A stretch of DNA of 64,000 nucleotides from Flavicella sediminum (GTDB lineage Bacteria; Bacteroidota; Bacteroidia; Flavobacteriales; Flavobacteriaceae). The notes beneath the pieces were generated by a model. It searched no databases and was not told the DNA's origin. It was given only the letters and a program-made list of their open reading frames with translations. The DNA lies in contig NZ_VDET01000002.1 of the NCBI RefSeq assembly GCF_006381105.1, forward strand, positions 965,578 to 1,029,577. Direction: 5' to 3'. Positions 6,988 to 44,036 of the stretch are shown here, in pieces. Numbering within the stretch: position 1 is the first letter of the stretch; every line of letters begins with the position of its first letter. A program made the position numbers and the translations under genes.

Positions 6988-7011
6988 CAAAACAGCTTTA
7001 CTTTAAGACCT

Positions 7012-7073: not shown

Positions 7074-7121
7074 AATACTAATTTTCTTCAGAGTGTTATT
7101 CCGTGCTCGTACTCATGAACT

Positions 7122-7813: not shown

Positions 7814-7875
7814 AAAAAAAGGAACTCAAAAATGAGTTCCTTTTTTTTATGCTTTCTTTTAAGTAGTCTTCAACA
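7814..7875. repeat. Copy 2 of the ~60-bp terminator-containing direct repeat
   Basis: A7, then GGAACTCA-aaaa-TGAGTTCC at 7821-7840, then T8 and ATGCTTTCTTTTAAGTAGTCTTCAA. Lies 28 bp beyond the nrdA stop. Confidence 0.7.
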
Positions 7876-7902
7876 AACTAGGCTATCAAATGAAATTTAT
7901 AG

Positions 7903-10317
7903 TTACGATCCACACATTTCACAATCATCAGGATTGTTTTGAGATTGTAGAATCATTTCCTTTAATTCTGCAGCAGACATGGGTGCATCTTGAACAGCTT
8001 CAGCAGCGGCCCCTTCTTTCAATACTGCTTTTTTATCGTTAGATAAAGAGAACTTAATGGCATTTACTGCCGATTTAGTTCTTAGGTAATACATTCCTGT
8101 TTTTAAACCAGACTTCCAAGCATAGAAATGCATCGATGTCAATTTAGAATAATCAGGATCTTCCATAAACAAGTTCAATGATTGAGACTGATCGATAAAG
8201 TATCCTCTTTGACGAGACATATCAATAATATCTTTCATACTCAATTCCCAAACTGTTTTGTACAAATCTTTTAAGTCTTGAGGAATAATATCAATATGCT
8301 GAATAGAACCATTGGCTCTCATGATATCTTCTTTCATGTTATTGTCCCATAGGTTCAAGGCCAATAAATCTTCCAACAAGTGTTTGTTTACAACGATAAA
8401 CTCACCAGACAATACTCTACGTGTATAAATATTAGATGTATATGGTTCAAAAGCTTCATTGTTTCCAAGAATTTGAGATGTAGATGCTGTTGGCATTGGT
8501 GCCATTAATAAAGAGTTACGCACTCCATTTTTAGCCACATCTTTACGTAATTTTTTCCAATCCCAAGTTCCACTTAAATCGTCTTCAGAAACACCCCACA
8601 TATTAAACTGGAATTCTCCTTGAGACATTGGTGAACCTTCATAGGTAGAATACGTTCCTTTTGCTTTGGCAACTTCCATAGAAGAAGTCACAGAAGCAAA
8701 ATACAAAGTTTCAAAAATATCTTGATTCAATTTTTTAGCTTCATCAGAAGTAAAAGGCATACGTAACAAAATAAAAGCATCTGCCAAACCTTGTACACCT
8801 AATCCAACAGGTCTATGACGCATGTTAGAATTTTCAGCTTCTTTAACTGGGTAGTAATTACGATCAATTACTGTATCTAAATTACGAATCACTTTTTTAG
8901 TAACATCGTATAATTTTTTATGGTTGAAATACTTCACGCCATCAGCTCCTTCAGAAACAAACATAGGAAGTGAAATAGAAGCTAGGTTACATACAGCAAC
9001 TTCATCTTTCGCAGTATATTCCATAATTTCCGTACATAAATTTGAAGAACGAATGGTTCCTAAATTCTTTTGATTCGACTTTCTATTAGCCGCATCTTTG
9101 TACAACATATACGGATTTCCTGTTTCAATTTGTGCTTCTAAGATTTTCTCCCAAAGATCACGAGCCTTAATGGTTTTACGTCCTTTATTTCTTGCTTCAT
9201 AGCTTTCGTAAAGCTCTTCAAACTCGTCTCCATAAACGTCAAATAAACCAGGACATTCGTTAGGACACATCAAAGTCCAAATTCCATCTTGCTCAACACG
9301 TTTCATAAATAAATCTGGCATCCACAACGCCAAGAACAAATCACGAGCACGTTTTTCTTCAGCTCCTGTATTTTTTCTTAAGTCTAAAAAGTCGAATACA
9401 TCAGCATGCCAAGGTTCTAAATAAATAGCGAAAGAACCCTTACGTTTTCCTCCACCTTGATCTACGTAACGAGCGGTGTCATTGTATACTTTTAACATTG
9501 GAATAATTCCATTAGAAGTACCATTTGTTCCTCTAATATAAGAACCTGTAGCTCTAACATTATGAGCAGACAAACCAATTCCACCTGCAGATTGAGAAAT
9601 TTTAGCTGTTTGTTTTAAAGTATCATAAATACCATCAATACTATCGTCTTGCATTTGCAATAAGAAACAAGAAGACATTTGAGGTTTTGGCGTTCCAGAG
9701 TTGAACAAGGTAGGTGTAGCATGTGTAAAATATTTTTTACTCATCAACTCATAGGTTTCAACAGCCGCATCCAAATCGTCCATATGAATTCCAATAGCCA
9801 CACGCATTAACATGTGCTGTGGACGTTCTGCTATTTCTCCGTTCAATTTTAACAAATAAGAACGCTCTAAAGTTTTAAACCCGAAATAATCGTAGTTAAA
9901 ATCTCTATTGTATATAAGTGTAGAATCTAAGAAATCTGCATTTTTCTTGATGATATTGTACACTTCATCCGATAACAAAGGCGCTTTTTGACCTGTACGA
10001 GGATTTATATAAGTATACAAATCGTCCATTACTTCAGAAAAAACCTTTTTCGTGTTTTTGTGTAAATTTGATACAGAAATACGAGCCGCTAACCTAGCAT
10101 AGTCAGGATGCGTAGTTGTCATAGTCGCTGCAATTTCTGAAGCTAAATTATCTAATTCAGAAGTTGTCACACCATCGTACAATCCTTCAATTACGCGCAT
10201 GGCAACTTTTACAGGATCTACTAAAGGATTCAATCCATAACAAATTTTTCTAATCCTCGCGGTAATTTTATCAAACATCACTGGCTCTTTCTTGCCATCT
10301 CTTTTTACTACAAACAT
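7903..10317 (-). CDS. nrdA: Class Ia ribonucleoside-diphosphate reductase alpha subunit
   Basis: 804 aa with an ATP-cone N-terminus ([20 protein letters not shown]), the catalytic core motifs and the C-terminal redox-active cysteine pair (...CEMCGS). Confidence 0.95.
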
Positions 10318-26545: not shown

Positions 26546-26674
26546 GCAACGAAAATAAATTAAAATTACGAATTACAACCAAGGAATTATTTTATTTGTT
26601 TGCCCTTAAGCTTTGATTAGACTGTTCTTTGAAGCTTATAAACGAATCACTATATTTGCCAAAAATTAAATAAA

Positions 26675-28020: not shown

Positions 28021-28057
28021 AGACCTAACAGGTTTTGAAAACCTGTTAGGTTTTTAT
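28021..28057. terminator. Bidirectional intrinsic terminator (tyrS / XRE regulator, convergent)
   Basis: AGACCTAACAGGTTTT-gaaa-ACCTGTTAGGT followed by a T5 run. Confidence 0.6.
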
Positions 28058-28058
28058 A

Positions 28059-28802
28059 TTATTTAGACGACAAACGTCTTAATTTTGCATCTATCTGATC
28101 CATTCTATCTTCTAGCTTCGAAACAAATTTTGGATACCTTTTCAACAACACACAAGAGACTTTCCAAAAATAAATTTCAGAATCTAAAGCCACGGTTATT
28201 GGCGCAATACGAATATGGTCCGCCAATAATTCGTAATTCTCCGTCGACTTGCGATATCTTCTAATAAATAAATTAGCATTTGCCAAAACAACAACAACAT
28301 CGTCTTCCTCCAACTCACTAGGCAAACTTTTTTCACCAATCACAACATCACCAGGAAACAATCCTTCTTCATTAGAAACCATATTTAAATCTTGTACCGC
28401 AAAGGCCAACAATTCAGAACCACCTTCTAAAGGAATCGTAATTTTAGGCAAAGAACCGTAACTCTTCGACCCGATAAAATCGTCTATAAACATTTTACCA
28501 TTCAAGTCATTTACAAAAGGGACTTCTGCAAAACCCGCTTTTACTACATGATTTACATCCGTTGTAATCCCACCATTAAAACTCAGCAATTGATTGACGG
28601 TAATCTCTTTTGTTAAAATATCGTCTATAGATATGCTAAAATAATTAGCAACCTTTATAATCGTATCTATCTTCGGCTCACTTCTACCCTCTTCATACGC
28701 ACCTAAAGTCGCTCTCTTTAAAGAGAATAAGTCGGCAAAAGCCTGCTGACTCAATTTTTTTACACCTCTAATTTTTTTAACATTTTTTCCGAAAAAAGAC
28801 AT
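28059..28802 (-). CDS. XRE-family HTH regulator with a C-terminal LexA/CI-like (S24-fold) domain; catalytic Ser-Lys dyad not evident
   Basis: 247 aa. N-terminal HTH: KLSQQAFADLFSLKRATLGAYEEGRSEPKIDTIIKVANYFSISIDDIL. C-terminal beta-rich domain (GDVVIGEKS...VVVVLANANLFIRRY) resembles the S24 fold. Divergent from the pspA-containing block. Confidence 0.55.
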   Translation of the reverse strand: MSFFGKNVKKIRGVKKLSQQAFADLFSLKRATLGAYEEGRSEPKIDTIIKVANYFSISIDDILTKEITVNQLLSFNGGITTDVNHVVKAGFAEVPFVNDLNGKMFIDDFIGSKSYGSLPKITIPLEGGSELLAFAVQDLNMVSNEEGLFPGDVVIGEKSLPSELEEDDVVVVLANANLFIRRYRKSTENYELLADHIRIAPITVALDSEIYFWKVSCVLLKRYPKFVSKLEDRMDQIDAKLRRLSSK

Positions 28803-28840
28803 ATTTTGCTAATTTTATTTGCAATTTAATTAATATTGTC

Positions 28841-28848
28841 TATATTTG
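28841..28848 (+). promoter_or_regulatory. Candidate promoter for the ybjN-pspA block: -7 box TATATTTG with TTG 19 nt upstream (28819-28821)
   Basis: TAnnTTTG consensus with a correctly spaced upstream TTG. About 155 nt upstream of the ATG at 29004. Only 39 nt from the divergent regulator start codon. Confidence 0.35.
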
Positions 28849-28863
28849 ACACATCAATAAGAT

Positions 28864-28871
28864 CAAAAGTA
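28864..28871 (-). promoter_or_regulatory. Candidate -7 box (TACTTTTG on the minus strand) for the XRE/S24 regulator gene
   Basis: Reverse complement of CAAAAGTA matches TAnnTTTG. The two divergent -7 boxes are back-to-back, about 20 bp apart. Confidence 0.3.
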
Positions 28872-29003
28872 ACAAAAATAGAGAAGTAAATCCACTGAAA
28901 ACACTGATAGTTCTAAAAAAATTAGCAATAACCAAAAAAAACTAAAAAACAGCACTCTCCTAGGTTCAAAAGATTTCGTAATATTAAAATCAAAATAAAA
29001 TAT

Positions 29004-29399
29004 ATGAAAGACCAATTTAACACCATTAAAAATTACTTGCTAGAGTTGAACTACAACATCACTCATGAAGACGAACAAGAAGGAATCCTGATGATTCAAA
29101 ATCGCAATGAAGGGATTGACAATTTAATTATAGGTATTGCCAGTCCAATTTTAATTATTGAACAATATATTTTCAAAATCAACAAGCCTAGCGAAAATAT
29201 CTTCCAGCAATTACTTCAAAAAAACAGAGACATAGTCCACGGAGCATTTGTACTTGACGAAACAGGAGAGAAAGTCATTTTTAGAGACACTTTACAAATT
29301 GAAAACATCGACTTGAACGAATTAGAAGGATCTATAAATTCATTGAGTTTATTACTAAGTGAATATTCCGAAAACATCATCCAGTTTTCCAAAGCCTAA
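29004..29399 (+). CDS. YbjN-domain protein (CesT/Tir-chaperone-like putative sensory transduction regulator)
   Basis: 131 aa, acidic, with an alpha/beta pattern typical of YbjN. Known as a recurrent PspA neighbour. Confidence 0.55.
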   Translation: MKDQFNTIKNYLLELNYNITHEDEQEGILMIQNRNEGIDNLIIGIASPILIIEQYIFKINKPSENIFQQLLQKNRDIVHGAFVLDETGEKVIFRDTLQIENIDLNELEGSINSLSLLLSEYSENIIQFSKA

Positions 29400-29471
29400 A
29401 TAAAATCCCTCAAAGCAATTCTTAGAGCCATTAAACCCACTAGCGGAAACAACCCTTATAAAACACATATC

Positions 29472-30170
29472 ATGAACATATTTAGAAGATTATTTAACGT
29501 AAGTAAAGCCGAAGCCCATTCTGCAATTGACAAAATGGAAGACCCAATCAAAATGACTGAACAAGGGATTCGCGACATGAAAAACGACTTAACACAAGCC
29601 CTTGAAGGACTTGCCCAAGTAAAAGCCATGTTGATCCGTTCTCAAAACGACAAAACGCAGTTTGAAACCAAAGCAAAAGATTATCAAAACAAAGCCATGC
29701 TTATTTTACAAAAAGCACAAAAAGGAGATCTTTCTGCTGAAAATGGAGATCGCTTAGCAAAAGAAGCTTTGATCAAGAAAGAAGAAAACACAGAACATGT
29801 AAATCGTTGCTCCATTGAAATAGACAAATTTTCAAAATCTGTTTCTCAATTAGAAACCAACGTAAACAGCCTGAAAAATAATATTAGCAAATGGGAAAAT
29901 GAATTAAAAACCCTTAAAGCTCGTGTAAAAGTATCTACCGCTACCAAGAATTTAAACAAACAAATGGCAGCCATTGATAGTTCTAGTACGGTAAACATGC
30001 TAGAAAAAATGAAAGAAAAAGTAACACAAGAAGAAGCTTTAGCAGAAGCCTATGGTGATATTGCCAATGACTCGAAAAGTATTGACGAAGAACTTGACAA
30101 AGCCTTAGACGGTAAAAGTACCAACGCCGATAACGATCTAGAAGCCCTAAAAAAACAAATGGGATTGTAA
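29472..30170 (+). CDS. pspA: Phage-shock protein A / IM30 (Vipp1) family, ESCRT-III-like
   Basis: 232 aa. MNIFRRLFNVSKAEAHSAIDKMEDPIKMTEQGIRDM... aligns with E. coli PspA (MGIFSRF...EDP...) over the whole coiled-coil length. Confidence 0.85.
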   Translation: MNIFRRLFNVSKAEAHSAIDKMEDPIKMTEQGIRDMKNDLTQALEGLAQVKAMLIRSQNDKTQFETKAKDYQNKAMLILQKAQKGDLSAENGDRLAKEALIKKEENTEHVNRCSIEIDKFSKSVSQLETNVNSLKNNISKWENELKTLKARVKVSTATKNLNKQMAAIDSSSTVNMLEKMKEKVTQEEALAEAYGDIANDSKSIDEELDKALDGKSTNADNDLEALKKQMGL

Positions 30171-30230
30171 AATTATTTCCCTAAGTTTAACCCTCGTTAG
30201 ACTTAGGGTTTAACAAAAAATTGCTACGAA

Positions 30231-30941
30231 ATGACCTTATACGAATTAGTGTTTTCACCCATAAACACACCACTGACATTATTATTAATTGCACTAACCG
30301 TATACAGAGTTGTTACCATGCTTTTTGGCCTTGACTTCGATTTTGACATTGATGTAGATCTTGATATCGATGTGGATGTTGACATAGACAACGACTTATC
30401 TATAGACAGCAGCGGTATGGATTTAGAAGATATTGCGAACCTTGAATTGAAAAACGAAACCATCGTAAAAGACAAAACTAAATCTTTAAAATGGTGGCAA
30501 GTCGTTTTAATTTACTTCAACTTCGCCGAGCTTCCCTTTATGTTTACCCTAACTTCTTGGGTGTTTTTTTGGTGGTTTATTACCGTTCTCGGAACCTACA
30601 TCACCTTAAGTCATCATAATGCTTTCGGACTTATAATTTTCTTAGCAGCTATATTGCCTTCATTAATTGTAAACAAAATATTTACCACACCTTTTAAAAG
30701 TATTTTTAAAAAACTAGAACGAAAAGGTGTCACTTCTATAGACTTACTTGGAAGAGAAGCAATTCTAGATTCAAATTTAACAGGTGATAAACTAGGACGC
30801 GTAAAAGTAAAAGTAGGATCCGATCCAATGATTATTTACGCAAAATCTATAGACGGAAAAACACTAAAAGTGGGTGAAAAAGTCTTAATCATTGACCAAT
30901 CAAAGGACAAAAAATATTACTATATCAAAAATAACTATTAA
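30231..30941 (+). CDS. NfeD/YqiJ-like membrane protein with a C-terminal OB-fold domain and an Asp-hydrophobic alternating repeat
   Basis: 236 aa. N-terminal TM helix, then DFDFDIDVDLDIDVDVDIDNDLSID (nt 30333-30407), 3-4 TM helices, and a C-terminal soluble beta domain (GDKLGRVKVKVGSDPMIIYAKSIDGKTLKVGEKVLIID) like the NfeD short-form OB fold. Sits directly upstream of flotillin with an 11-bp gap, as yqiJ sits before yqiK in E. coli. Confidence 0.6.
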   Translation: MTLYELVFSPINTPLTLLLIALTVYRVVTMLFGLDFDFDIDVDLDIDVDVDIDNDLSIDSSGMDLEDIANLELKNETIVKDKTKSLKWWQVVLIYFNFAELPFMFTLTSWVFFWWFITVLGTYITLSHHNAFGLIIFLAAILPSLIVNKIFTTPFKSIFKKLERKGVTSIDLLGREAILDSNLTGDKLGRVKVKVGSDPMIIYAKSIDGKTLKVGEKVLIIDQSKDKKYYYIKNNY

Positions 30942-30952
30942 AAAAAATTACT

Positions 30953-33049
30953 ATGAATTTAACTATGATTTCCCTTTCACTAACAGACATTGCCTCTTCC
31001 ATGATTGGAATTGCCATTGGCGGACTAGCAGGACTGGTATTACTATTCGTGCTTTTTGTAGCCATGTTCTACAAAAAAATTCCTCAAGGGGAAGCTATTA
31101 TCAAAACAGGTTTCGGAGGAACGCATGTAGCATTTGACAAAGGAATGTATGTTATTCCTGTTCTTCATAAAGTGGAAATCATGGACATTTCCGTAAAAAA
31201 GATTGAAGTCGAGCGTATGTTAGAAGATGGTCTTATTTGTAAAGACAATATGCGAGCAGACATAAAAGTAGCTTTCTTTGTAAGAGTAAACAAATCGAAA
31301 GATGCTATTATAGAAGTAGCTCAAACCATTGGTTGCGAAAGAGCTTCTGCAGAAGAAACTTTGTACGAATTGTTCGAAGCAAAATTTTCTGAAGCCTTAA
31401 AAACCGTTGGTAAAAAATTCATGTTTACAGAATTGTACGAAGCTCGTAGAGAATTTAGAGATGAAATTATCAACATTATTGGTACCGATTTAAACGGCTA
31501 CACACTGGAAGACTGTGCGATTGATTACCTGGAACAAACTCCGATTAAATACTTAAAAGCAGATAATATTTTAGATGCGGAGGGGATTAAAAAAATCACA
31601 GAGCTTACAGCAATTCAAAACATGAAGTCTAACTTGATCAAACGTGATGAAGAAAAAGTCATTCGCAAACAAGATGTAGAAGCACGTGAAGCAATTTTAG
31701 AATTAGACAAACAATTGGCTGAAAAAGAAGAGCAACAAAAAAGAGAAATTGCCAATATAAAAGCCAGAGAAGGAGCTGAAATTGCTAAAGTTGGTGAAGA
31801 AGAACGTTTAAAATCTGAAACAGCCAGAATTGCTACAGAAGAAAAAGTAAAAATTGCAGAAGAAAACAAAGACCGTCAAATTATTGTTGCTGCTAAAAAC
31901 AAAGAACGTACGGAAGTTGTTGAAACGGAAAGAGTATTAAAAGACCAACAACTAGAGGCTACTGAAAGAGTAAAAGTTGTGGCACTTGCCGATATTGAAA
32001 AAGAGAAAGCCGTTGAAGTGGAGAAAAAGAACATTCAAGATGTTATTCGCGAACGTGTTGCCTTAGAAAAAGGTGTGGTAGAAGAACAAGAATTAACAAA
32101 AGATATTGAAGCATTTAAAACAGCAGATCGTGACAAACAAGTAGCGATTACCATTGCCGAACAAGATGCCGAAGCTCAATTGATTAGAATTACCAAAGCT
32201 GCCGAAGCGCAAAAAGAAGCTGCCAAACAAAAAGCAGAAGAAATCAACATTGACGCACAGGCCAAAAAAGAAGCTTCGACTAAAGAAGCGGAAGCTAGAA
32301 AAATATTAGCCGATGCTCAAGCCAAAGAAGAAGCAACCATCGGTCTTTCTGAAGCACAAGTACTGCATGCCAAAGCAGATGCTCACGAACGTGAAGGAAT
32401 TGTAGAAGCAAGCATTATTGAAAAAACCGCACTTGCCGAAGCTGTAGGAATTGAAGCAAAAGCAGAAGCTGTTAAAAAACAAGGTTTAGCTGAAGCTGAA
32501 GTTATTAGAGAAAAAGCCATTGCAGATGCTGCCGGTATTGAAGAAAAAGCAGAAGCAATGAAAAAACTTGATGGTGTTGGAAAAGACCACGAAGAGTTTA
32601 AACTAAGACTGGATAAAGAATTACAAGTAGACTTAGCTGAAATAAACATCCAAAAAGAAATTGCAGATGCACAAGCTGACGTAATTGGAGAAGCATTGAA
32701 AGCTGCAAATATTGATATTGTTGGTGGTGAAACAATGTTCTTCGATCAAATTATTGGGCAAATTACACGCTCTAAAGGTATCGACAGATTGGTCAATCAT
32801 TCTGAAAACATCACCGAAGTAAAAGATGCTATCTTAGGTTCTAACGACGTAAAAGGAAATCTATTAGAAAAAGTAAAAGGTTTTGCTCAAGACTACGGAA
32901 TTGGCTCTGAGGATATCAAAAACTTAACAATCTCTAGCTTATTATTGAAACTTCAAGGTGAAGCAGACTCTAACGATCAAAGAAATTTATTTTCTAATCT
33001 ATCCAACCTTTCCAAAGCACTTGGCTTAAGTGATAAGAAATTAAGTTAA
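30953..33049 (+). CDS. Flotillin (SPFH/band-7) family protein with an extended Glu/Ala-rich coiled-coil tail
   Basis: 698 aa. N-terminal TM anchor. SPFH core (KTGFGGTHVAFDKGMYVIPVLHKVEIMDISVKKIEV). About 350 aa of EA-repeat coiled coil with internal near-duplications: AEAVGIEAKAEAVKK / ADAAGIEEKAEAMKK. Confidence 0.85.
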   Translation: MNLTMISLSLTDIASSMIGIAIGGLAGLVLLFVLFVAMFYKKIPQGEAIIKTGFGGTHVAFDKGMYVIPVLHKVEIMDISVKKIEVERMLEDGLICKDNMRADIKVAFFVRVNKSKDAIIEVAQTIGCERASAEETLYELFEAKFSEALKTVGKKFMFTELYEARREFRDEIINIIGTDLNGYTLEDCAIDYLEQTPIKYLKADNILDAEGIKKITELTAIQNMKSNLIKRDEEKVIRKQDVEAREAILELDKQLAEKEEQQKREIANIKAREGAEIAKVGEEERLKSETARIATEEKVKIAEENKDRQIIVAAKNKERTEVVETERVLKDQQLEATERVKVVALADIEKEKAVEVEKKNIQDVIRERVALEKGVVEEQELTKDIEAFKTADRDKQVAITIAEQDAEAQLIRITKAAEAQKEAAKQKAEEINIDAQAKKEASTKEAEARKILADAQAKEEATIGLSEAQVLHAKADAHEREGIVEASIIEKTALAEAVGIEAKAEAVKKQGLAEAEVIREKAIADAAGIEEKAEAMKKLDGVGKDHEEFKLRLDKELQVDLAEINIQKEIADAQADVIGEALKAANIDIVGGETMFFDQIIGQITRSKGIDRLVNHSENITEVKDAILGSNDVKGNLLEKVKGFAQDYGIGSEDIKNLTISSLLLKLQGEADSNDQRNLFSNLSNLSKALGLSDKKLS

Positions 33050-33062
33050 AAATACAAACTGC

Positions 33063-33095
33063 TCTATGCTTCCTTAAAACATAGAGCAGTTATTC
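33063..33095 (+). terminator. Perfect 10-bp stem-loop after the flotillin gene; possible partial terminator or attenuator
   Basis: CTGCTCTATG-cttccttaaaa-CATAGAGCAG followed by a moderately T-rich tract. Lies in the 256-bp gap before the giant ORF. Confidence 0.4.
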
Positions 33096-33305
33096 TATAA
33101 AATCATTATTCGTCAATTGGCTACCGACCAAAAACAACACTTTTATCAAAGTCATTAACTATAGACTTCAAAACACATAGTTCTGGGGCGTCCATTAGAA
33201 ATTCTCGAAGAAACAAAAACTGTCCATTTGAATAATTTCAAAACATAAAGACCTCACAAAGAGCATAAAAAAACTGCTACAAGGAATAAAGAAGACCGCA
33301 ACAAA

Positions 33306-36300
33306 ATGAAAAAAAACGCTATAACACTTGAAGGAGGAACTTATGAAATCATCCAAAACAGACTGCAAAATCATAAAAGTGACTTGGTGGAACGTTTGCA
33401 AGTTTTAAACACCGACAGAAAAGACATTTTTGGAGCCGTTGAAACCAAATTAATTGCGAATGACAGAATAAACACCGAGAATTCTTGTATTGCCAGAGAT
33501 ATAGTTTCTTTTGGGAATATTTGTTTATTTGGATACAATGTCCATTTTGGTTTGCGTTCAGAAATAAAATTAGCCGATGTATTCAGTGTTTATAAATTTC
33601 ATGAAAACAGATTTCAGCTACAAGACTTAACTTTTATCAACCAAGAAGCATTTGTCACTGATTTTAAAAATTTATACAAATACTATAGAAATACTTTTTT
33701 CACAAAATTCATGCTTACCGAGCAATACCTATACATGGTATTTCAAATTGGTGAAGAAATCAGCGATATCAAAGCTTTTAAATGGCTGGTAAAAAACAAC
33801 CAAATAAGCTACATCGACAATAGAAGTGATCATGAATACAAATTCCCTAACCAACACGAATTTAATTGGCAGGAAGTTAATTATGACAATTTCAGAAAAG
33901 GCGCACATCCTCATGTTTCTATTTTAGACAAGGTTTTTGTTGAAACTATTGGCGGTGATTTAACCATTAAAATAGAAGACAATTCTCAATCGGGCTTAGG
34001 AATTTATGCCGAACCTGTTGATAACAAAGACCAGACTTTAGATGACGGACAGTACAGATATGCCGACTTAGGTAACTTGACGGTTTTAGAAATTACACCT
34101 TACCTAGAGGAAGCACGTTATTTTGTGTACAACCATAAAGTACAAGAGGTAGCCCGAATTCAAAGCATAAAAGATACCGCAGTATTGTTGCCAGACGACC
34201 AAGGATTAATTTTTCCGGAAGGTTATTATTTACAGACAGGTACATTAAAAAAATTCGACAGAACTGTCAACAACGTAAAATTTCAGAAAAAAGTAGCCTC
34301 TCCTAATGGAGAAGATTTCTTATATGTTTTTTATGAAGAAACAGCTGGAGATTATGTGCTAATGCACTACAATATTATTGAGCAAAATATTCACCCACCC
34401 ATAATTTGCAACGGTTTTACACTTTTAGAAAACGGAGAACTCTCCTATTTTAAATCGGAAAATGAAGCGAATAAACATCATGTTATTCAAATTTGGCAAA
34501 CGCCATTTTCCAAAAAAATTAAATCCAATCCTGCCCATAGCGATTCACTTTTATACAAAATTGGAAACAAAGACATTGTAAAGGCCATGGCGGAATGCCA
34601 GGAACTAATTACACTTCTAAACAAAGAAGATAATTATGATGGTTTGTACAACGACATCGCCAAACAAAGCATTGATATAGTCGATTCTTATTATTGGATT
34701 TCAGAAAAAGAAACATCCAACTTAAGCGAACCCCTTACAGAAATAAACAGCACGGCAAATTCTGCCATTGATGAATTTGAGAAAGTAGTTCAGTTAAAGA
34801 AAATCGCCGCAGAGGTCACTGAAAATTTAGAAGCCGAAATTCAGAAACTTTTTGACAACATTAAACACAGCACCTTTAATTCTATTGATGATTTTGTTCA
34901 ACTTTTAACCCGATTAAGAGGCTCTCAAGGAAATTCAATTTCGCTAAAAGAAACACGCTATATAAACATAGAGCGCTTAGACGAAATCAATGAAACTATA
35001 AAGGAAGAAACGGAACGAATTTCAAGAAGATGTATTACTTTTTTACTGAATAAAAAGGCTTTAGACCCCTATCAAAAAAGAATTCAAGAGAAAAATAAAG
35101 TCTTAACCGAGTTAACAAAAGTAATTGAAGGAAAAGACTTAGAAGCAAGCATCAATCAGATAAGTGCCGACCTTGAATTACTAATAGATATTGTCAATAA
35201 TTTAGATATTGAAGACACCTCACATTCCACCACTATAATTGATAATATTTCTTTATTATTTGCAGAAATAAATCAATTAAAAGCAGGTGTAAAAAGAAAA
35301 GTTCAAAGCTTAAATGCCAAAGAAAGCAAAGCTGATTTTATTGCCCAATTAAAATTATTTGACCAAAGTATCATCAATTTTATTGATATAGCCAACACTC
35401 CTGAAAAATGTGAAGAATACCTTACCAAACTTTCGGTACAACTGGAAGAATTGGAAGGGAAATTTGCCGATTTCGATGAATACATTACAGAAATCATCAA
35501 CAAAAGAGAGGAAGTTTATAGCGCTTTTGAAAACAGAAAAAACACCTTAGTTGAAGCCAGAAACAAAAAAGGAATCGCCCTTCAAAATGCTTCTGAAAGA
35601 ATTTTAAAAAGCATTCATAAAAAAGCGGCAACTTTTAAAACAGAAGAAGAAATCCACGGTTATTTTGCTTCCGATATTATGGTGAATAAATTGCACAATA
35701 TTATTGAGCAATTACAAGAGCTAGAGGAAACAGGAAAAGCAGAAACCCTGCAAACCAATTTAAAATCGGCAAAAGAAGAGGTTCTTAGAAAATTAAAAGA
35801 CAGCTTAGATTTATACGAAGATGGCGATTCTGTCATCAAACTAGGAAAGCACAAATTTGGTGTTAACAAACAAGCCCTAGACTTAAATATTGTCAATAAA
35901 AACGGAGACTTATTTTTCCATTTGTCAGGAACCGATTTTCATGAAAAAATTGAAAATGAAGTTTTAAACTTATCCAAAGATATATGGAATCAAGATTTGA
36001 TTTCTGAAAATGAACATGTTTATCGATCTGAATTTTTAGCTTATAAAATATATCAAAAATACCCCCTTGCTTTCTTACTAGAAAAAACGACTGAAAACCT
36101 TGTGGAGCTAGTCAAACAAGAAAGCAGTGAAAACTATTCTGAAGGCTATGTAAAAGGTGTACACGATTTAGATGCGGCAGTCATTTTAAAACTTCTTATT
36201 CAAACAGAAAACGATTTACAATTATTGCGATTTACTCCAGTTACAAGGGCCAATGCGCAATTGTTTTGGAATCAATTAGAAAACGAAACAAAACAAGCTT

Positions 36301-38120: not shown

Positions 38121-38532
38121 TCGTATGCAAATTAAATCGCCAGCCAGCTTCTTTAATTACTATAAAGATTGTTACAAGTTAGACTATAAATACATTGAAA
38201 AACTAGAAAACAAACTATTTTATCGACCTTATTGGGTATCCTGGCCAATTTAATAACGCTTTTACTACAGAACGTTACAAAACCTTTGCTCGAGTTGGAA
38301 TAAGCACCATACCTTTACATTACCGATTTTGGAATGAAAACAAAACACAAGCAAAACAAAAACTAATACATCTCATAAATAAATAAATAAAGTACAAGTA
38401 TTAATTATACACCCCATCAATTTCAATTGAAGGTTAAGTACAACAAAAGAATAAAATAAAGTCTCGACTCCGCTCGACCTGACATAGAAACAAATTTGAT
38501 AATTATTATCAACTACTAAAAAGAAAACACAC

Positions 38533-39084
38533 ATGGGAATATTTGATTTTTTCAAGAAAAAAGAAAAAGAAAGACATTTTGATCCGACCAACATTACTGT
38601 AAGAGACTTAGGCAAAGGATACATTTTTGAATACATAATAGAAACTTGGACCGTTACCGCTTTGTTTGAATACGACTGGGGCGACAATTATTTTACCCGA
38701 GAGTTTATCATTAAAAACGGTACTATTGAAAAGTATTTAGAACTTGAGGATGATGGTGGCTTGGTTGTTACCATTTCCGAAAAAGTAAAACTGAGAAAAT
38801 TAGGTGACGAGGTGTGTGATTATATAGACAAACACGAAAAACCGCCTAAAAAAATAAACTTCGAAGGCGTTCAATATTTCCTTGATGAAAAATCTCCTGG
38901 CTTCTCTAAAGAAATTGATGCTGCCAACTGGGAAGAACTTATTTCCTACGACTACCTAGACAAAGAAGAAGAAAAAACACTTTGCATAGTTCAGTATGGC
39001 GACGAAGAATTTGAAGTAAGCAAAGGAACGATTATTAGTGAACTGGCTATTTCTAATATATTACCTGTGGCAGACAATTATTAG
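38533..39084 (+). CDS. DUF4178-like (B. subtilis YdjI-like) protein
   Basis: 183 aa, soluble and acidic, with conserved aromatic and acidic blocks (YDWGDNYF, FEGVQYF, CIVQYGDEEFEV). Family assigned from memory. YdjI is encoded in the B. subtilis pspA-ydjGHI operon. Confidence 0.5.
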   Translation: MGIFDFFKKKEKERHFDPTNITVRDLGKGYIFEYIIETWTVTALFEYDWGDNYFTREFIIKNGTIEKYLELEDDGGLVVTISEKVKLRKLGDEVCDYIDKHEKPPKKINFEGVQYFLDEKSPGFSKEIDAANWEELISYDYLDKEEEKTLCIVQYGDEEFEVSKGTIISELAISNILPVADNY

Positions 39085-39121
39085 TCTTCAAAACTCTAAC
39101 TTTGATTTTAAATTAATTCGA

Positions 39122-39919
39122 ATGAAAACACTCAAAACACTACTCTTCACAAGCGTACTACTTCTCGTAATTTCTTGCGGAAAAGAAGTCCGTAAAAAGT
39201 ATCTTAAATCGCCTTTAGACAACATCATCACTACATATATTGATGTACAAAACTACAGCGTTATCCTAGCGGATATGGATTATAAAGAGGCTACCGACAA
39301 GTATTTTCACAAGTACAAAATCATACTAGAAAAAAACAATGCTACAAAATCTACCGAAGATGATTTTGACATAACTACAACAGATTGGAAGGAAGTTTCT
39401 GCCATTACTTTTGAAGAGCACCAGCAAGATTTAGGAATGACCGTACTTTCTAAAAAAGACGGTGTGTTAGACAAAAAAGCAACACCCGCTGGCTACAACA
39501 ACTATGTAGGTAACAACAAATACGGAAACTGGCAAAGACAAAGCAACGGTACTTCTTTTTGGGTATTTTATGGGCAATACCATTTTATGAGATCTATGTT
39601 CTATGGTTCTAGCCATAGGTACTACAGAAATGATTATGATTATTACAGAACCAACCATTACGGAAGAAGTAATTACTATGGTAGAACTAATAATTTTGGA
39701 ACCTCTACGTATAAAAACACAAGTTCTAGCTGGACTGCCAAACCCAAAACATTTAAAGACAAGGTAAGAAGCAATGTAAAAAGAAGTTCTTCCGCTCTAA
39801 AATCAAAAGGGTACAGCTCTAGTAAAAGTTACAAAAGCTCAAACCAAACAACAAGAAACACAAACAGATACAGCAGCTCAAGTTCTTCACGCTCTCGTAG
39901 TGGCGGATTTGGTAAATAA
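39122..39919 (+). CDS. Lipoprotein with a Tyr/Arg/Ser/Asn/Gly-rich low-complexity C-terminal half
   Basis: Start at the ATG at 39122 (MKTLKTLLFTSVLLLVISCGKE, signal peptide plus lipobox Cys). The track ORF begins upstream at 39038. C-terminus reads ...YYRNDYDYYRTNHYGRSNYYGRTNNFG...SSSSSSRSRSGGFGK. Confidence 0.5.
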   Translation: MKTLKTLLFTSVLLLVISCGKEVRKKYLKSPLDNIITTYIDVQNYSVILADMDYKEATDKYFHKYKIILEKNNATKSTEDDFDITTTDWKEVSAITFEEHQQDLGMTVLSKKDGVLDKKATPAGYNNYVGNNKYGNWQRQSNGTSFWVFYGQYHFMRSMFYGSSHRYYRNDYDYYRTNHYGRSNYYGRTNNFGTSTYKNTSSSWTAKPKTFKDKVRSNVKRSSSALKSKGYSSSKSYKSSNQTTRNTNRYSSSSSSRSRSGGFGK

Positions 39920-39937
39920 TATAAAAGCTAGAAAAAC

Positions 39938-40807
39938 ATGGACAAATACATCAATATTATCGAGTTATCACATTCCCTTGGATACATCGTCAGCGGCTTT
40001 ATCATTTTTATCATTGGAAAAATTGCCTACAAATTACTTCACCCAAATATCAACATTCAACACGAACTAGTTGAAAAAGATAATTTTGCTTTTATCCTTT
40101 CGTATGTCGGTTATTTTGCCGCTTTAATAACAGCCATTGGTGGCGCTATTGTTGGCGAAAGTTATGATTTTGTAACTGACATCCTGCATATTTTTATGTA
40201 CGGAGGTATCGCTATTGTATTGTTATTATTGGCCGCATGGATTAGCAATAAAGTTATTCTAAATAAATTCGATCTTAAAAAAGAAATTATTACAGATAAA
40301 AACGAAGGTTCAGGAGTTATTGAAGCGGCTATTTATATGGCAAACGGACTTATTTTATACGGTGCTTTGGTGGGCGAATCTGAAACTTTAGTAGAAGGAA
40401 TTACCACTTTTATTATTTATTGGCTGATTGGAAATACAGTTCTTATTCTAGCTTCCAAACTATTTATTACTTGGATGAGCTACGACATTCATGCTGAAGT
40501 AGAAAAAGACAATGTAGCGGCTGGAATTAGTTTTTCTGGGGCTATACTCGCTATAGGAATTATTACCATGAATGCTATTTTAGATCCTTTTATTGATTGG
40601 ACTACAACAATTATAGACATCAGTTTGCAAACAATACTAGGTTGTTTACTACTGCCTATTATGCGTGTTTTTGCAGATAAAATTTTATTACCTGGAAGAA
40701 AACTTACCGATGAAATTATCAACCAAGAAAAACCAAATATTGGTGCCGGTTTGATTGAAGCCTTCGCCTATATCGCTTCTGCAATATTAATTACATGGAG
40801 TATCTAA
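39938..40807 (+). CDS. DUF350-like (E. coli YjfL-like) polytopic membrane protein with a repeated unit
   Basis: 289 aa. Four copies of an [ED]K[DPN]N-plus-hydrophobic-helix unit: EKDNFAFILSYVGYFAALITAIGG, DKNEGSGVIEAAIYMANGLILYG, EKDNVAAGISFSGAILAIGIITMN, EKPNIGAGLIEAFAYIASAILITW. Stop overlaps the next gene by 13 bp. Confidence 0.6.
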   Translation: MDKYINIIELSHSLGYIVSGFIIFIIGKIAYKLLHPNINIQHELVEKDNFAFILSYVGYFAALITAIGGAIVGESYDFVTDILHIFMYGGIAIVLLLLAAWISNKVILNKFDLKKEIITDKNEGSGVIEAAIYMANGLILYGALVGESETLVEGITTFIIYWLIGNTVLILASKLFITWMSYDIHAEVEKDNVAAGISFSGAILAIGIITMNAILDPFIDWTTTIIDISLQTILGCLLLPIMRVFADKILLPGRKLTDEIINQEKPNIGAGLIEAFAYIASAILITWSI

Positions 40808-42351
40808 AACAAAATTCTTTTGTATTAAAAGCCGCTATTTTTGCAACAGGTTTTGCAGGAATAGTAGCTGAATATACTCTTTCTACACTGGCCACCTATT
40901 TTATTGGAAATTCAATTTTTCAATGGACCATGATTGTCTCCTTGATGCTATTTTGCATGGGACTGGGAAGTAGATTGAGTAAATTAATTACAAAAAATTT
41001 AATTCAGAATTTTTTAATTCTAGAAACCACACTTTCGCTAATTGTTGCTTTTTCTTCGGTTTTGGTGTACACCCTTGCTTCGGTTAGTGAATACTACGGA
41101 ATTGTAATTTATTCCTTGAGTATGATTATCGGATTGCTGATTGGTTTAGAAATTCCATTGGTGGTTAGAATTAATAAAGAATACGAAGACTTAAAAAGCA
41201 ACATCTCTTCCATTTTAGAAAAAGACTATTATGGAAGTTTAATTGGCGGTGTATTTTTTGCCTTTATCGGCTTACCAATATTGGGCTTATCGTATACGCC
41301 TTTTGTCCTTGGAATTATTAATTTCTTAGTCGCACTCATTGTATTTTATCGTTTTAAAGACAAAATCAACAAGCAGCATACCTTTCGATTAAAAGCTGTT
41401 TTAACGGTGGTTTTTGCTATTTTAATTACAGGGATTGCCTTTACTGAACCTATTATTCAGTGGGGAGAACAGAAAAAATTCAAAGACAAAGTCATTTATT
41501 CTGCACAAACCAAATACCAAAATATTGTTTTAACCGAATGGAAAAAGGAACACTGGTTGTACTTAAATGGAAATTTACAATTCTGCTCCATTGATGAAAA
41601 AATGTATCACGAACCTTTGGTACACCCCATCATGCAATTGCACCCAAATCCGCAACGAATTTTAATTTTAGGTGGTGGCGATGGTTGTGCGGTTCGTGAG
41701 ATACTAAAATACCCAAGTGTTGAAAAAATTGACATGGTTGATTTAGATCCAAAAATGACAGATTTAGGAACACAGCACCCTGTTCTTATAAACATCAACC
41801 AAGGCAGCATGAACAGTGAAAAATTGAGTGTAATTAACAAGGATGCCTACATTCATTTGGAACAAAACACAAGTGACTTTTACGACATTATTATTGCCGA
41901 TTTACCTGACCCAAGAAACATTGAGCTTGGAAGGTTGTATTCTCATGAATTTTATTCGCTTTGCAATAGAAAACTAAGACCCAACGGCTTTATCATTACC
42001 CAAGCCGGAAGTCCGTATTTTGCTACAAAAGCTTATCACTGTATTGGAAAAACAATGCAATCAGCTGGTTTTACAACCGTAAACTTACACAATCAAGTAT
42101 TGTCTATGGGCGAGTGGGGTTGGATATTAGGAACAAAGAACACAGCGACAAACGCAAAGCAACTCAAGGAAAAATTACAAAGTATTGATTTCAAAAATGT
42201 AGAAACAAATTGGATCAACAACGAAGCTATGCAACTAATTACTTCTTTTGGAAAAGATTTTTTTAAACTAAATGATACTAGTGAAATTAATAAAGTCCAC
42301 AACCCTGTACTTTATCAATATTATTTAGATGGAAACTGGGATTTATATTAA
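40795..42351 (+). CDS. speE: Membrane-anchored polyamine aminopropyltransferase (spermidine/spermine synthase with an N-terminal ~7-TM domain)
   Basis: 518 aa. Residues 1-215 are polytopic. The C-terminal domain has ILILGGGDGCAVREILKY...VDLDPKMTDL...IIIADLPDP...FYS, the spermidine-synthase GGGDGG and D-L-D/ADLPDP signature. Confidence 0.8.
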   Translation: MEYLKQNSFVLKAAIFATGFAGIVAEYTLSTLATYFIGNSIFQWTMIVSLMLFCMGLGSRLSKLITKNLIQNFLILETTLSLIVAFSSVLVYTLASVSEYYGIVIYSLSMIIGLLIGLEIPLVVRINKEYEDLKSNISSILEKDYYGSLIGGVFFAFIGLPILGLSYTPFVLGIINFLVALIVFYRFKDKINKQHTFRLKAVLTVVFAILITGIAFTEPIIQWGEQKKFKDKVIYSAQTKYQNIVLTEWKKEHWLYLNGNLQFCSIDEKMYHEPLVHPIMQLHPNPQRILILGGGDGCAVREILKYPSVEKIDMVDLDPKMTDLGTQHPVLININQGSMNSEKLSVINKDAYIHLEQNTSDFYDIIIADLPDPRNIELGRLYSHEFYSLCNRKLRPNGFIITQAGSPYFATKAYHCIGKTMQSAGFTTVNLHNQVLSMGEWGWILGTKNTATNAKQLKEKLQSIDFKNVETNWINNEAMQLITSFGKDFFKLNDTSEINKVHNPVLYQYYLDGNWDLY

Positions 42352-42353
42352 GT

Positions 42354-42662
42354 ATGAAGACAACCTACAAACATATTGAAGCAAATATTTACAGTCATAA
42401 AATTTGGTCTGCTTGCACCGAGCCTTCAGCACTTAAAGAAACTTATGGCGGTTTATTAAAGGAAGTCGATTTTACGATTATTCTCTTTAATGAACATCAT
42501 TTTCCAGAACAAGGCTACACCTGTTTTTGGTTATTAGGTGAAAGTCATTTGGCCATACATACCTTTCCAGAAAGTGGCAAAAGTTATATTGAATTGAGCA
42601 GTTGCAATAAAGAAAAATTAGACTTATTCGTTGACAAGGAAAAAAGTATAAACCTGAAATAA
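42354..42662 (+). CDS. Small pyruvoyl-dependent S-adenosylmethionine decarboxylase proenzyme (SpeH/class-1-like)
   Basis: 102 aa. LLGESHLAIHTFPESG matches the AdoMetDC self-cleavage (E-S) and catalytic-site signature. Starts 2 bp after the speE stop. Confidence 0.65.
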   Translation: MKTTYKHIEANIYSHKIWSACTEPSALKETYGGLLKEVDFTIILFNEHHFPEQGYTCFWLLGESHLAIHTFPESGKSYIELSSCNKEKLDLFVDKEKSINLK

Positions 42663-42663
42663 A

Positions 42664-43440
42664 ATGAAAAAAAAAGTTAGAGATTTTATCAACCACAACA
42701 AAACCTTTATCAAATTCATTTATGCGCTAATTGTCTTAAATATCATTGCCTTAATTCTAGAGTCTTATGAGGAATTAAATGCCCAATACAGCCATATTTT
42801 TTATTATTTCGAACTGTTTTCAGTTGCTATTTTTACCGTGGAATACTTTATCCGAATTTGGGTTTCTGACAAAACAAAAGAAGACAAAAAAGAACGACTC
42901 AACTTTGCTTTCTCTACCTTAGGAATCATCGATTTGATTGCCATACTTCCCTTTTACCTTCCCTTTATTTTTCCTATCGATTTAAGAATTGTTCGTATAC
43001 TTCGCTTGTTTCGTTTGTTAAGAATTTTTAAACTAAGTCGCTATTCAAAATCACTAAAAACCATCCAGTATATTTTTAAAGAAGTAAAAGGAGAACTTTC
43101 CATCACCGTATTTGTCACTTTTGTTTTGATGATTTTATCTTCAACACTTATGTACTATATAGAACATGACGACCAACCAGAGCAATTTGCAAGTATTGGC
43201 GATGCTTTTTGGTGGTCTGTAGCAACACTAACAACCGTTGGCTATGGAGATGTTTACCCTGTAACCGGCCTAGGAAAATTATTAAGTGGAATTATTGCCT
43301 TGATCGGAATTGGTTTTGTAGCACTACCTACAGGAATTATCAGTTCTGCCTTTATTGCAAAAATACAAGCAGAAAAAAAACAGAAAAAGAAGAAAACCAT
43401 GTGTAACTGTCCACATTGTGGGAAAAATTTCGACTTATGA
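42664..43440 (+). CDS. Voltage-gated K+ channel (6-TM Kv-like) with a C-terminal CxCxxC zinc-ribbon-like tail
   Basis: 258 aa. S4 voltage sensor RIVRILRLFRLLRIFKLSRYSK. Selectivity filter TTVGYGDVYP. C-terminal ...KKKKTMCNCPHCGKNFDL. Starts 1 bp after the AdoMetDC stop. Confidence 0.8.
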   Translation: MKKKVRDFINHNKTFIKFIYALIVLNIIALILESYEELNAQYSHIFYYFELFSVAIFTVEYFIRIWVSDKTKEDKKERLNFAFSTLGIIDLIAILPFYLPFIFPIDLRIVRILRLFRLLRIFKLSRYSKSLKTIQYIFKEVKGELSITVFVTFVLMILSSTLMYYIEHDDQPEQFASIGDAFWWSVATLTTVGYGDVYPVTGLGKLLSGIIALIGIGFVALPTGIISSAFIAKIQAEKKQKKKKTMCNCPHCGKNFDL

Positions 43441-43976
43441 TTCCTAACAAATACATCATACAGTTTGTCATCTTATTATATGTTATCTATATAGTGAGCC
43501 TTGTTTTTCCCATAACAAAATTTGGAATTGTTCCAAGAACAACACAAGGACTTGCAGGAATTTTTACGGCTCCATTTTTACATGGCGGAATTTGGCACCT
43601 TGTTTCCAATACCATTCCTTTGCTTGTGTTACTTACTGTATTAAATCATTTTTATCCTAAAAAAACCATAGCGGTTGTGCTATTTATTATTGTTGCTAGC
43701 GGAATACTGGTATGGATTTTTGCAAGAAAAGCAAACCACATAGGGGCTAGCGGACTTATATACGGACTTGCCACATTTTTAATTTTAAATGGATTTTTGG
43801 AACAGAAATTTGTTTCCATACTTGTTTCATTAGCCGTAGCCTTACTCTATGGTGGATTGATCTGGGGAATTTTTCCTTCAGTCAGATCCTATATATCTTG
43901 GGAAGGACATTTATTTGGAGCCGCATCAGGTGTGTTTATTGCCTTTTTATTAAAAAACAAAGCTTTGTACACCTAA
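43437..43976 (+). CDS. Rhomboid-family intramembrane serine protease
   Basis: 179 aa from the ATG at 43437 (ATGA overlap with the K+ channel stop; the track start at 43416 is a TTG). TM2 HxxxN (WHLVSN). Catalytic GASGLIYG. TM6 His in EGHLFGAASG. Confidence 0.75.
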   Translation: MIPNKYIIQFVILLYVIYIVSLVFPITKFGIVPRTTQGLAGIFTAPFLHGGIWHLVSNTIPLLVLLTVLNHFYPKKTIAVVLFIIVASGILVWIFARKANHIGASGLIYGLATFLILNGFLEQKFVSILVSLAVALLYGGLIWGIFPSVRSYISWEGHLFGAASGVFIAFLLKNKALYT

Positions 43977-44000: not shown

Positions 44001-44036
44001 AAAAAAGGCTGTAAAATAATTTTACAGCCTTTTTTA
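44001..44036. terminator. Bidirectional intrinsic terminator closing the + strand block and the convergent minus-strand gene
   Basis: A6-GGCTGTAAAAT-aa-ATTTTACAGCC-T6. Confidence 0.6.

Follow-up and report, generated by a model that had tools for sequence, protein, structure and literature searches.

The closest described relatives of the locus reported here are the gene neighbourhoods that Ravi et al. (2024; preprint 2020; PMC11237479) assembled around a dyad of CesT/Tir-like chaperone and PspA genes and presented as 'two novel overlapping genomic associations'. In group 1 of that study, the CesT/Tir-PspA dyad is accompanied by a YqiJ/YuaF protein, a band-7 flotillin and a beta-propeller/coiled-coil AAA+ protein; the archetype given in Table S3 is ANH61663.1 of Dokdonia donghaensis DSW-1, with a divergent 'cHTH+Protease' gene. 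In group 2, the dyad is found with DUF4178, a Ctha_1186 lipoprotein, YjfL/DUF350 and a spermidine-synthase-like protein fused to seven transmembrane (TM) segments (archetype Shewanella oneidensis SO_3765), whilst a third group is extended by ATP-grasp polyamine ligases and a K+ channel (PMC11237479). The same partners were found with PspA in other phyla (PMC11237479), and band-7 and NfeD proteins are known to adjoin pspA in Bacteroidota (Popp et al. 2022; PMC9239133). Here, we describe a 12-gene locus of Flavicella sediminum in which a group 1 and a group 2 gene set follow one another on the same strand. The locus lies within a 64,000 nt stretch of contig NZ_VDET01000002.1 (positions 965,578 to 1,029,577), which is referred to below as the window.

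The locus is a PspA-centred membrane-stress locus. Its core consists of a divergent regulator, an operator and the CesT-PspA dyad, to which two add-on cassettes are attached: cassette A (YqiJ-like, flotillin and AAA+ genes) and cassette B (the genes from DUF4178 to a rhomboid protease). We consider it probable that the locus works as a hub with cassettes, in which two cassettes that share one dyad have been joined across the relic of a helicase gene, and that it operates broadly by the mechanism proposed below. The genes and the elements between them are as follows (window coordinates, strand, description, basis).

28021-28053, no strand: terminator hairpin at the upstream boundary, where the tyrS and regulator genes converge; 15-bp stem, then a T run; folding free energy (dG) -19.5 kcal/mol, z -6.0
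28059-28802, minus: divergent regulator with a Cro/C1-type helix-turn-helix (HTH) and a LexA/CI-like S24 domain; HTH_3, E 3e-10; Peptidase_S24, 20.6 bits, below the cut-off
28806-28824, no strand: imperfect palindrome TTGCTAAT-TTT-ATTTGCAA, candidate operator for the HTH regulator; exact match in 64 related loci, unique in the window
28818-28848, plus: Bacteroidetes-type promoter, -33 TTTG, 19-nt spacer, -7 TATATTTG (28841-28848); consensus match, conserved in a 14-locus alignment
29004-29399, plus: CesT/Tir-like chaperone, first gene of the dyad; PF22550 CesT_Tir_1, 193 bits, E 2e-57
29472-30170, plus: PspA/IM30 (ESCRT-III-like) protein; PF04012 PspA_IM30, 147 bits, E 9e-43
30179-30208, plus: hairpin directly 3' of pspA; 13-bp stem, dG -17.7, z -4.7
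30231-30941, plus: NfeD/YqiJ/YuaF-like membrane protein, 236 aa, with an acidic linker and a C-terminal OB fold; Foldseek search of a structure model, names of homologues
30953-33049, plus: YqiK-type flotillin, 698 aa, with a TM segment, an SPFH domain and a long coiled coil; 31% identity over 451 aa to Escherichia coli YqiK, E 1e-53
33057-33091, plus: hairpin directly 3' of the flotillin gene, candidate attenuator or terminator; dG -16.8, z -7.0
33306-38120, plus: 1604-aa AAA+ protein with an N-terminal beta-rich DUF3686 domain, a helical/coiled-coil middle with DUF7902 and a C-terminal AAA+ module; Pfam DUF3686, DUF7902 and AAA_5
38125-38383, plus: relic of a gene for a 903-aa superfamily 1 (SF1) helicase-like protein, with about 2.3 kb deleted internally; tblastn, in agreement with DNA alignment to loci L124 and L083
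38533-39084, plus: DUF4178 protein, first gene of cassette B; PF13785, E 2e-15
39119-39919, plus: lipoprotein whose low-complexity tail is rich in Ser, Tyr and Arg; signal peptide and lipobox LVISC, read from the sequence
39938-40807, plus: YjfL-type membrane protein with two DUF350 domains; PF03994, E 2e-47, two matched stretches
40795-42351, plus: multi-TM aminopropyltransferase (spermidine-synthase-like); NCBIfam NF002956 (PRK03612-type), 580 bits against a cut-off of 472; Spermine_synth, E 1.5e-36
42354-42662, plus: class 1b pyruvoyl decarboxylase of the S-adenosylmethionine decarboxylase (AdoMetDC)/SpeD family; PF02675 AdoMet_dc, 51.7 bits
42664-43440, plus: 6-TM voltage-gated-type K+ (Kv) channel; Ion_trans, E 5e-37
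43437-43976 (open reading frame (ORF) listed from 43416), plus: rhomboid intramembrane protease; PF01694, E 2e-20, GASG and a GHL-type His motif
44001-44035, no strand: bidirectional terminator at the downstream boundary (A run, stem, T run); 16-bp stem, fold computed

The 12 plus-strand genes (29004-43976) and the single minus-strand gene had been placed at exactly these coordinates by a first-pass annotation of the window, with which the ORF list agrees. Folding likewise confirmed its boundary terminators at 28021 and 44001 and its hairpin after the flotillin gene; Rfam returned only sub-threshold matches, on the terminator hairpin. Its family assignments were verified or refined with Pfam and NCBIfam profiles (scanned against the window ORFs between 25.5 and 46.1 kb), by comparison with YqiK and by a structure model. 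The gene at 29004, for example, had been called YbjN-like and is now assigned to CesT_Tir_1, and we take YbjN to belong to the same chaperone-like superfamily. From cesT to the rhomboid gene, the junctions measure 72, 60, 11, 256, 412, 34, 18, -13, 2, 1 and -4 bp. The tiny gaps and overlaps described earlier are therefore present, but the '13' is an overlap of 13 nt and not a gap, and only one of two supposed ATGA overlaps exists, where the rhomboid ATG at 43437 overlaps the Kv stop codon.

To place the locus in context, 125 related loci were compared in total. With the AAA+ protein as anchor, species-representative genomes yielded at least 571 relatives, of which the closest 80, mostly Flavobacteriaceae by record title, were kept; a second set, drawn from metagenomes and anchored on the TM-aminopropyltransferase, contained 25 informative loci. 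Denominators are the loci with enough stored flanking sequence (74 upstream and 68 downstream of the AAA+ gene), and cassette content was scored at the locus only. YqiJ and flotillin genes precede the AAA+ gene in all 74 loci, and the CesT-PspA dyad with its divergent regulator is present in 65 of them (88%). Cassette B lies downstream of the AAA+ gene in three of 68 loci and is missing from the other 65, with two further short contigs showing it. Among the loci anchored on the aminopropyltransferase, PspA is encoded directly upstream of DUF4178 in 13 and upstream with an insert in three, such that cassette B follows the core without cassette A in 16 of 25. Flotillin and AAA+ genes stand upstream in eight more, where the stored flank reaches CesT-PspA only in L106, and the remaining locus, L117, is too short for its upstream content to be told. 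The neighbourhood check suggested in the first-pass annotation, anchored on the AAA+ protein and on the membrane aminopropyltransferase, was thus borne out: both co-localize with PspA loci, and the genes on either side of the giant ATPase are PspA-linked.

Cassettes A and B are evolutionarily separable. The closest relatives of the window as judged by the aminopropyltransferase (85-95% identity) are without cassette A, and locus L093, which has the flanks of the window (tyrS, 90% identity, and a YHS gene), runs straight from pspA to DUF4178 without YqiJ, flotillin or AAA+ genes. Composites of A and B in the gene order of the window occur in Wenyingzhuangia (L006), in the metagenomic loci L124 and L125 (AAA+ identity to the window 96% and 82%), in the L004/L099-L105 group (70%), in L106 and in an Aquimarina metagenome-assembled genome (L075, 62%). 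The gene arrangement, which is kept across 62% to 96% AAA+ identity, is not due to chance. The composite is limited to a few lineages and is a lineage-specific union of the two cassettes. PspA itself is 89-90% identical to that of the window in relatives with cassette B only, 83% in the Wenyingzhuangia locus with both cassettes and 60-73% in loci with cassette A only; because these values track the divergence of the other shared genes and not cassette content, the dyads are probably orthologous.

The control region at the head of the locus is shared by these relatives. The candidate operator, TTGCTAATnnnATTTGCAA, is near-invariant, and the palindrome that we propose as the target of the regulator is TTGCTAATTTTATTTGCAA. 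The exact match occurs once per locus in the 64 related loci, and lies in the regulator-cesT spacer wherever coordinates were compared. Five composites (L004, L006, L075, L106 and L125) contain a single copy each, so cassette B has no operator copy of its own there. The -33 TTTG of the head promoter sits inside the right half of the operator, and this promoter is the only full-consensus Bacteroidetes -33/-7 match within the island, cassette B of the window having none. The same full consensus was also found at 26628-26658, a short distance before tyrS (start 26675), and thereby provided an unplanned positive control for the pattern. A scan with a sigma-70 model was uninformative (55 sites against 58.6 expected), and the Bacteroidetes consensus was used in its place. 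In the 5' leader of cesT, two further conserved blocks were observed, at 28913-28930 and 28975-28990; one, TTCTAAAAAAATTAGCAA, holds the half-site ATTAGCAA, the reverse complement of the left half of the operator, and the other reads TTTCGTAATATTAAA. These blocks may represent a second operator or a leader element.

The C-terminal domain of the regulator can be aligned to the catalytic core of LexA, but lacks its catalytic residues. Alignment to E. coli LexA (hhalign, E 6.6e-5, probability 64%) places V142 at Ser119 and R181 at Lys156. Across 80 homologues, the position aligned to Lys falls in a conserved 'RR' motif, and Val, Thr or Ile appears at the aligned Ser position in the motif patterns (which are not column counts). 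As the Ser-Lys catalytic dyad of self-cleaving S24 repressors is absent, LexA-style self-cleavage is unlikely, and the sequence points to a catalytically dead pseudo-peptidase that serves as a sensor or dimerization domain.

The junction between the cassettes carries a record of their history. The 412 bp between the AAA+ and DUF4178 genes had been described as a plain gap; most of it is instead filled by the decayed SF1 helicase-like gene. In a tblastn search, helicase residues 6-27 matched 38125-38190 (91% identity) and residues 847-903 matched 38213-38383 (89%). The 96% relative L124 has a helicase-like gene at the same position (6998-9665), called in two pieces, and in L082 and L083 (3539-6250 in the latter) an intact copy stands between pspA and cassette B. 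In L083, the approximately 75 nt that precede the helicase start resemble the last codons of the AAA+ gene, with a local alignment score of 28 against 10.7 ± 1.9 for shuffled sequences, none of 2000 shuffles reaching it. This relic of the AAA+ 3' end indicates that cassette A was lost from L083 by deletion, and that the composite is the older state in this clade.

Homologues of the SF1 (AAA_11/AAA_12) helicase-like gene are found near the PspA loci of many Flavobacteriaceae at varied positions: following pspA, the AAA+ gene or the K+ channel gene, or beside the regulator on the opposite strand. A conserved gene pair that is absent from the window was also observed directly upstream of DUF4178 in L004 (14842-16318), L083 (6254-7711), L092, L117, L099, L104, L105 and L121, and between pspA and yqiJ in L020 (5243-6614). 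The first protein of the pair is 133-147 aa long and ends in CG(A/S)CHN; the second, of 335-352 aa, has an acidic/Ser-rich region and ends in CSSCSSCSSCGGD. The proteins of the pair have no Pfam or PADLOC match.

The core and cassette A closely resemble the Dokdonia group 1 locus, with the same five genes in the same order and the same divergent cHTH and 'protease' regulator (PMC11237479). As in that group, the CesT/Tir-like gene stands directly upstream of the PspA gene, 72 bp away. D. donghaensis, which belongs to the same family as F. sediminum, is not among our loci; in other Dokdonia genomes, the proteins are 60-79% identical to those of the window (AAA+, 62%). The two loci differ in that the published neighbourhood, as quoted, ends at the AAA+ gene (PMC11237479), whereas that of the window continues with cassette B on the same strand, and in that the 'protease' label does not suit the regulator of the window, whose domain lacks the catalytic residues. 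A CesT/Tir-like chaperone gene followed by a PspA homologue is likewise found in the Pseudomonas aeruginosa bac cluster (PA3732-PA3729) and in E. coli yjfIJ, but there the chaperone is of the DUF2170 type, the downstream genes and the regulation are different and a sigma-54 site has been proposed. The bac genes have biofilm, rhamnolipid and virulence phenotypes, and the crystal structure of BacA has been solved (PMC10948618). No Sigma54_activat, PspB or PspC domain was detected among the ORFs scanned between 25.5 and 46.1 kb, which sets the locus apart from the classical PspF-PspABC system.

The NfeD-like and flotillin genes form an adjacent pair like that of E. coli yqiJ-yqiK and QmcA-YbbJ. 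The modelled OB fold of the 236-aa protein gave YuaF (2K14, E 1e-4), the QmcA-YbbJ complex (8Z5G) and 3WWV as top Foldseek matches, and its homologues are named 'DUF1449 family', the family of YqiJ; the model is consistent with the multi-TM plus NfeD-type OB architecture of YqiJ/YuaF proteins. Although neither this protein nor the flotillin was matched in full-length Pfam and NCBIfam scans, and the flotillin had no phmmer match among PDB sequences, an N-terminal fragment of the flotillin scored 56.5 bits against Band_7 (cut-off 23.6), as expected for a group 1 flotillin. Unlike the pair in the window, E. coli yqiJ-yqiK has no adjoining PspA, chaperone or AAA+ gene. The experimental precedent for PspA recruitment that depends on an SPFH protein is the Bacillus subtilis pspA-ydjGHI operon, in which PspA is encoded together with YdjI, an SPFH/band-7 protein (PMC9239133) that links PspA to the membrane (PMC9239133; PMC7619361). 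The first-pass annotation had equated YdjI with DUF4178, which is incorrect. In place of the chaperone, NfeD and AAA+ genes found here, the B. subtilis operon has YdjG and YdjH (zinc ribbon and TPM).

In the giant AAA+ protein, Walker A (SPPGYGKTT), Walker B (LYLDD) and a sensor-1 Asn were read from the sequence. Profile matches to AAA_5/RuvB-like modules are weak and confined to the P-loop region. An AlphaFold model of residues 1-700 contained beta strands at 63-381 and long helices at 467-696 (predicted local distance difference test score (pLDDT) 57; predicted template-modelling score (pTM) 0.31). The Pfam scan detected no MIT or Vps4 domain and no protease, nuclease or DNA-binding domain, and no TM segment was evident on reading the sequence. 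In HflK/C-FtsH, an SPFH cage has an AAA+ partner. In the window, an ESCRT-III-like polymer and an SPFH scaffold are encoded beside an AAA+ protein, and this gene adjacency suggests, by analogy with that system and with ESCRT-III/Vps4 of archaea and eukaryotes, ATP-driven remodelling. The protein differs from Vps4 in having no MIT domain and is not Vps4-like, and, according to a 2025 review, bacteria appear to have no Vps4-like ATPase (PMC7619361).

Cassette B corresponds to the Shewanella SO_3765 operon of group 2 in its DUF4178, low-complexity lipoprotein, DUF350 and TM-aminopropyltransferase genes; the DUF4178, 8-TM DUF350 and TM-fused Spermine_synth proteins that together define the group all scored above the cut-offs. 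In close relatives of the window (L081, L093 and others), these genes directly follow the dyad. The window differs from the Shewanella operon in gene order, in the type of chaperone (CesT_Tir_1 here, DUF2170 there), in the presence of a SpeD-like decarboxylase, a K+ channel and a rhomboid protease and in the absence of a ribbon-helix-helix (RHH) gene. Its dyad is also set apart, 8.4 kb upstream of cassette B, with cassette A, a hairpin and the gene relic in between. The lipoprotein, for which the ATG at 39119 is the preferred start within the 293-aa ORF, has no Pfam match and corresponds in position to the gene that Ravi et al. label 'LipoSIG+Ctha_1186+Low-comp' (PMC11237479). A -7-like TAnnTTTG motif lies at 39097-39104, about 20 nt upstream of the lipoprotein start and at an equal distance in 16 of 33 relatives; it may be an internal promoter for the lipoprotein, DUF350 and aminopropyltransferase genes.

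Both enzymes of cassette B retain the motifs of the AdoMetDC/SpeE pathway: the aminopropyltransferase keeps GGGDG and DLPDP, motifs for the binding of decarboxylated S-adenosylmethionine and for the catalytic Asp, and the SpeD homologue keeps HTFPE and, for self-processing, LGES-H. In 2019, Li, Kurihara, Kim, Liang and Michael reportedly described clusters that combine a fusion of a major facilitator superfamily (MFS)/TM domain to spermidine synthase (SpdSyn) with a class 1b AdoMetDC and DUF350; the AdoMetDC is said to have been active, with no spermidine made and no complementation of an E. coli speE mutant. The clusters so described and the window share a membrane-fused aminopropyltransferase beside a small SpeD homologue and a DUF350 protein. 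The local spermidine synthesis proposed in the first-pass annotation is doubtful, and Ravi et al., who cite Li et al. 2019 for the linkage to AdoMetDC, raise the aminopropylation of 'other substrates' (PMC11237479). Arginine and ornithine decarboxylases are known among class 1b SpeD homologues (PMC10407285) and, by analogy, the SpeD homologue of the window could be one of these instead.

The Kv channel has a TVGYGD filter and an S4 segment with an Arg repeat; its end carries a motif, CNCPHCGKNF, similar to one half of a zinc ribbon. In L004 and L075, the slot of the Kv channel is taken by a 2-TM Ion_trans_2 channel with TrkA_N/C domains. The occupation of one slot by two unrelated channel types leads us to infer that K+ flux is integral to cassette B. 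The rhomboid gene, present in only 12 of 25 relatives, is clade-specific.

Two hairpins lie inside the island. A stem of at least 8 bp is found at the same position after pspA in 42% of relatives. The 60 nt that follow the flotillin stop codon fold, over 85 loci, with a mean dG of -17.9 against -7.2 for shuffled sequences (-12 or lower in 79%); the position of this hairpin is conserved, its sequence is not and it has no other copy in the window that would mark it as a dispersed repeat. The spacer between the flotillin and AAA+ genes ranges from 106 to 1432 bp in relatives. A -7 motif is present within 200 nt upstream of the AAA+ gene in only four of 86 loci, and this rarity fits read-through from upstream. 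The conserved hairpins would fit graded expression by partial termination. In Wenyingzhuangia sp. (L006), an IS200-like (Y1_Tnp) transposase gene was observed at 9337-9834, between the flotillin hairpin and the AAA+ gene.

The mechanism that we propose begins with membrane stress, which would relieve repression through the binding of a ligand or partner to the beta-barrel domain of the regulator, and not through self-cleavage. The chaperone would keep PspA competent for assembly, allowing it to polymerize on the damaged membrane, and the NfeD-flotillin pair would form an SPFH scaffold that recruits or organizes PspA, by analogy with B. subtilis YdjI. Given its linkage to flotillin in 74 of 74 loci and to PspA in 88%, the AAA+ protein most likely uses ATP to remodel or recycle the coiled-coil polymers of PspA and flotillin. 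The hairpins after pspA and the flotillin gene would lower expression stepwise along the transcript. Cassette B would make decarboxylated S-adenosylmethionine and transfer its aminopropyl group to a membrane-proximal acceptor, perhaps not putrescine, and the K+ channel would couple the response to membrane potential or ion balance. A more specific version is speculative, and we give it only a slim chance of being right in full: one dyad and one operator would serve two effector arms, with the DUF3686 AAA+ protein as a functional counterpart of Vps4, which bacteria appear to lack, that disassembles or recycles polymers of PspA, flotillin or both, aminopropylation of a non-polyamine acceptor (such as a lipid head group or envelope component) as a part of membrane repair and a K+ channel that couples this chemistry to membrane voltage.

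It could be argued that all twelve genes make up one obligate, integrated and previously undescribed machine, as the first-pass annotation had suggested. The genes are co-directional and closely spaced within each block, a single consensus promoter with its operator precedes them, a single terminator follows them and the composite order recurs in several lineages. Nevertheless, we regard this as improbable, since each cassette so often occurs without the other (A lacks B in 65 of 68 loci, and B lacks A in 16 of 25) and L093 lacks cassette A at the same chromosomal site. The rhomboid gene is found in under half of the relatives, the Kv channel is exchanged for a TrkA-type channel elsewhere, and the flotillin hairpin and the pseudogene relic intervene between the blocks, as does the IS200-like transposase in L006. 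Nor is such a machine undescribed: both halves, with their link to PspA, are in Ravi et al. (PMC11237479). The opposite possibility, that A and B are unrelated operons which share a neighbourhood because the PspA locus is a permissive integration spot, and that the composite has no joint function, has in our view a small but real chance. It draws on the varied inserts after pspA or the AAA+ gene (the SF1 helicase-like gene, the 147/335-aa pair, the IS200-like transposase and unrelated genes in L075) and on the rarity of the composite among species representatives (three of 68). However, each cassette on its own is repeatedly tied to the same orthologous CesT-PspA dyad and operator, and coincidental adjacency is weakened because both depend strictly on these; cassette B has neither an operator copy of its own in composites nor a full-consensus promoter in the window, gene order is kept over a wide range of AAA+ divergence and the same partners accompany PspA in other phyla (PMC11237479).

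That the giant ATPase is a 'DNA repair ATPase', as source names and the Pfam description of DUF3686 have it, or that the block is an anti-phage defence or mobile island with an incidental link to PspA, we consider highly improbable. The SF1 helicase-like gene near the locus in relatives does resemble the helicase modules of defence proteins, but that gene is dispensable here, since only a relic is left. The repair label is not supported by domain content, in which Pfam detected no nuclease or DNA-binding domain, or by gene context, the ATPase gene being invariably beside NfeD and flotillin genes. For the island proteins, PADLOC matches were limited to trivial ones in P-loops and coiled coils, and no defence system was assigned. 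The base composition of the island is that of its flanks, which are syntenic in L093, and no integrase or transposase domain was found among the scanned ORFs of the island and its immediate flanks (tRNA genes were not searched for).

Several observations weigh against the hub-and-cassette reading and its mechanism. The A-B junction is variable, being a direct abutment, the helicase gene, the extra gene pair or other genes in different loci, which is also compatible with mere neighbours. The Walker B motif of the AAA+ protein ends in DD and not DE, and the model of its N-terminal part is of low confidence, with a propeller fold no more than possible. The strong flotillin hairpin could equally terminate transcription, leaving the AAA+ gene poorly expressed, and every mechanistic step beyond the identities of the genes is inferred. 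On balance, we still favour a hub with two cassettes.

The system itself is not new, as both cassettes and the links between PspA, polyamine genes and K+ channels were published between 2020 and 2024 from comparative genomics. What this locus adds is the hub-and-cassette picture, the conserved operator, the apparently inactive S24 domain, the conserved flotillin hairpin and the exchange of K+ channels. Open questions in PspA/ESCRT-III biology include how polymers are turned over without Vps4, and why PspA genes accompany those for SPFH proteins and polyamine-type enzymes. In this locus, a single promoter and operator precede every one of these candidates, in marine Flavobacteriaceae that can be cultured (Flavicella and Wenyingzhuangia), and the natural variants with cassette A only, cassette B only or both represent a ready-made set for genetic dissection.

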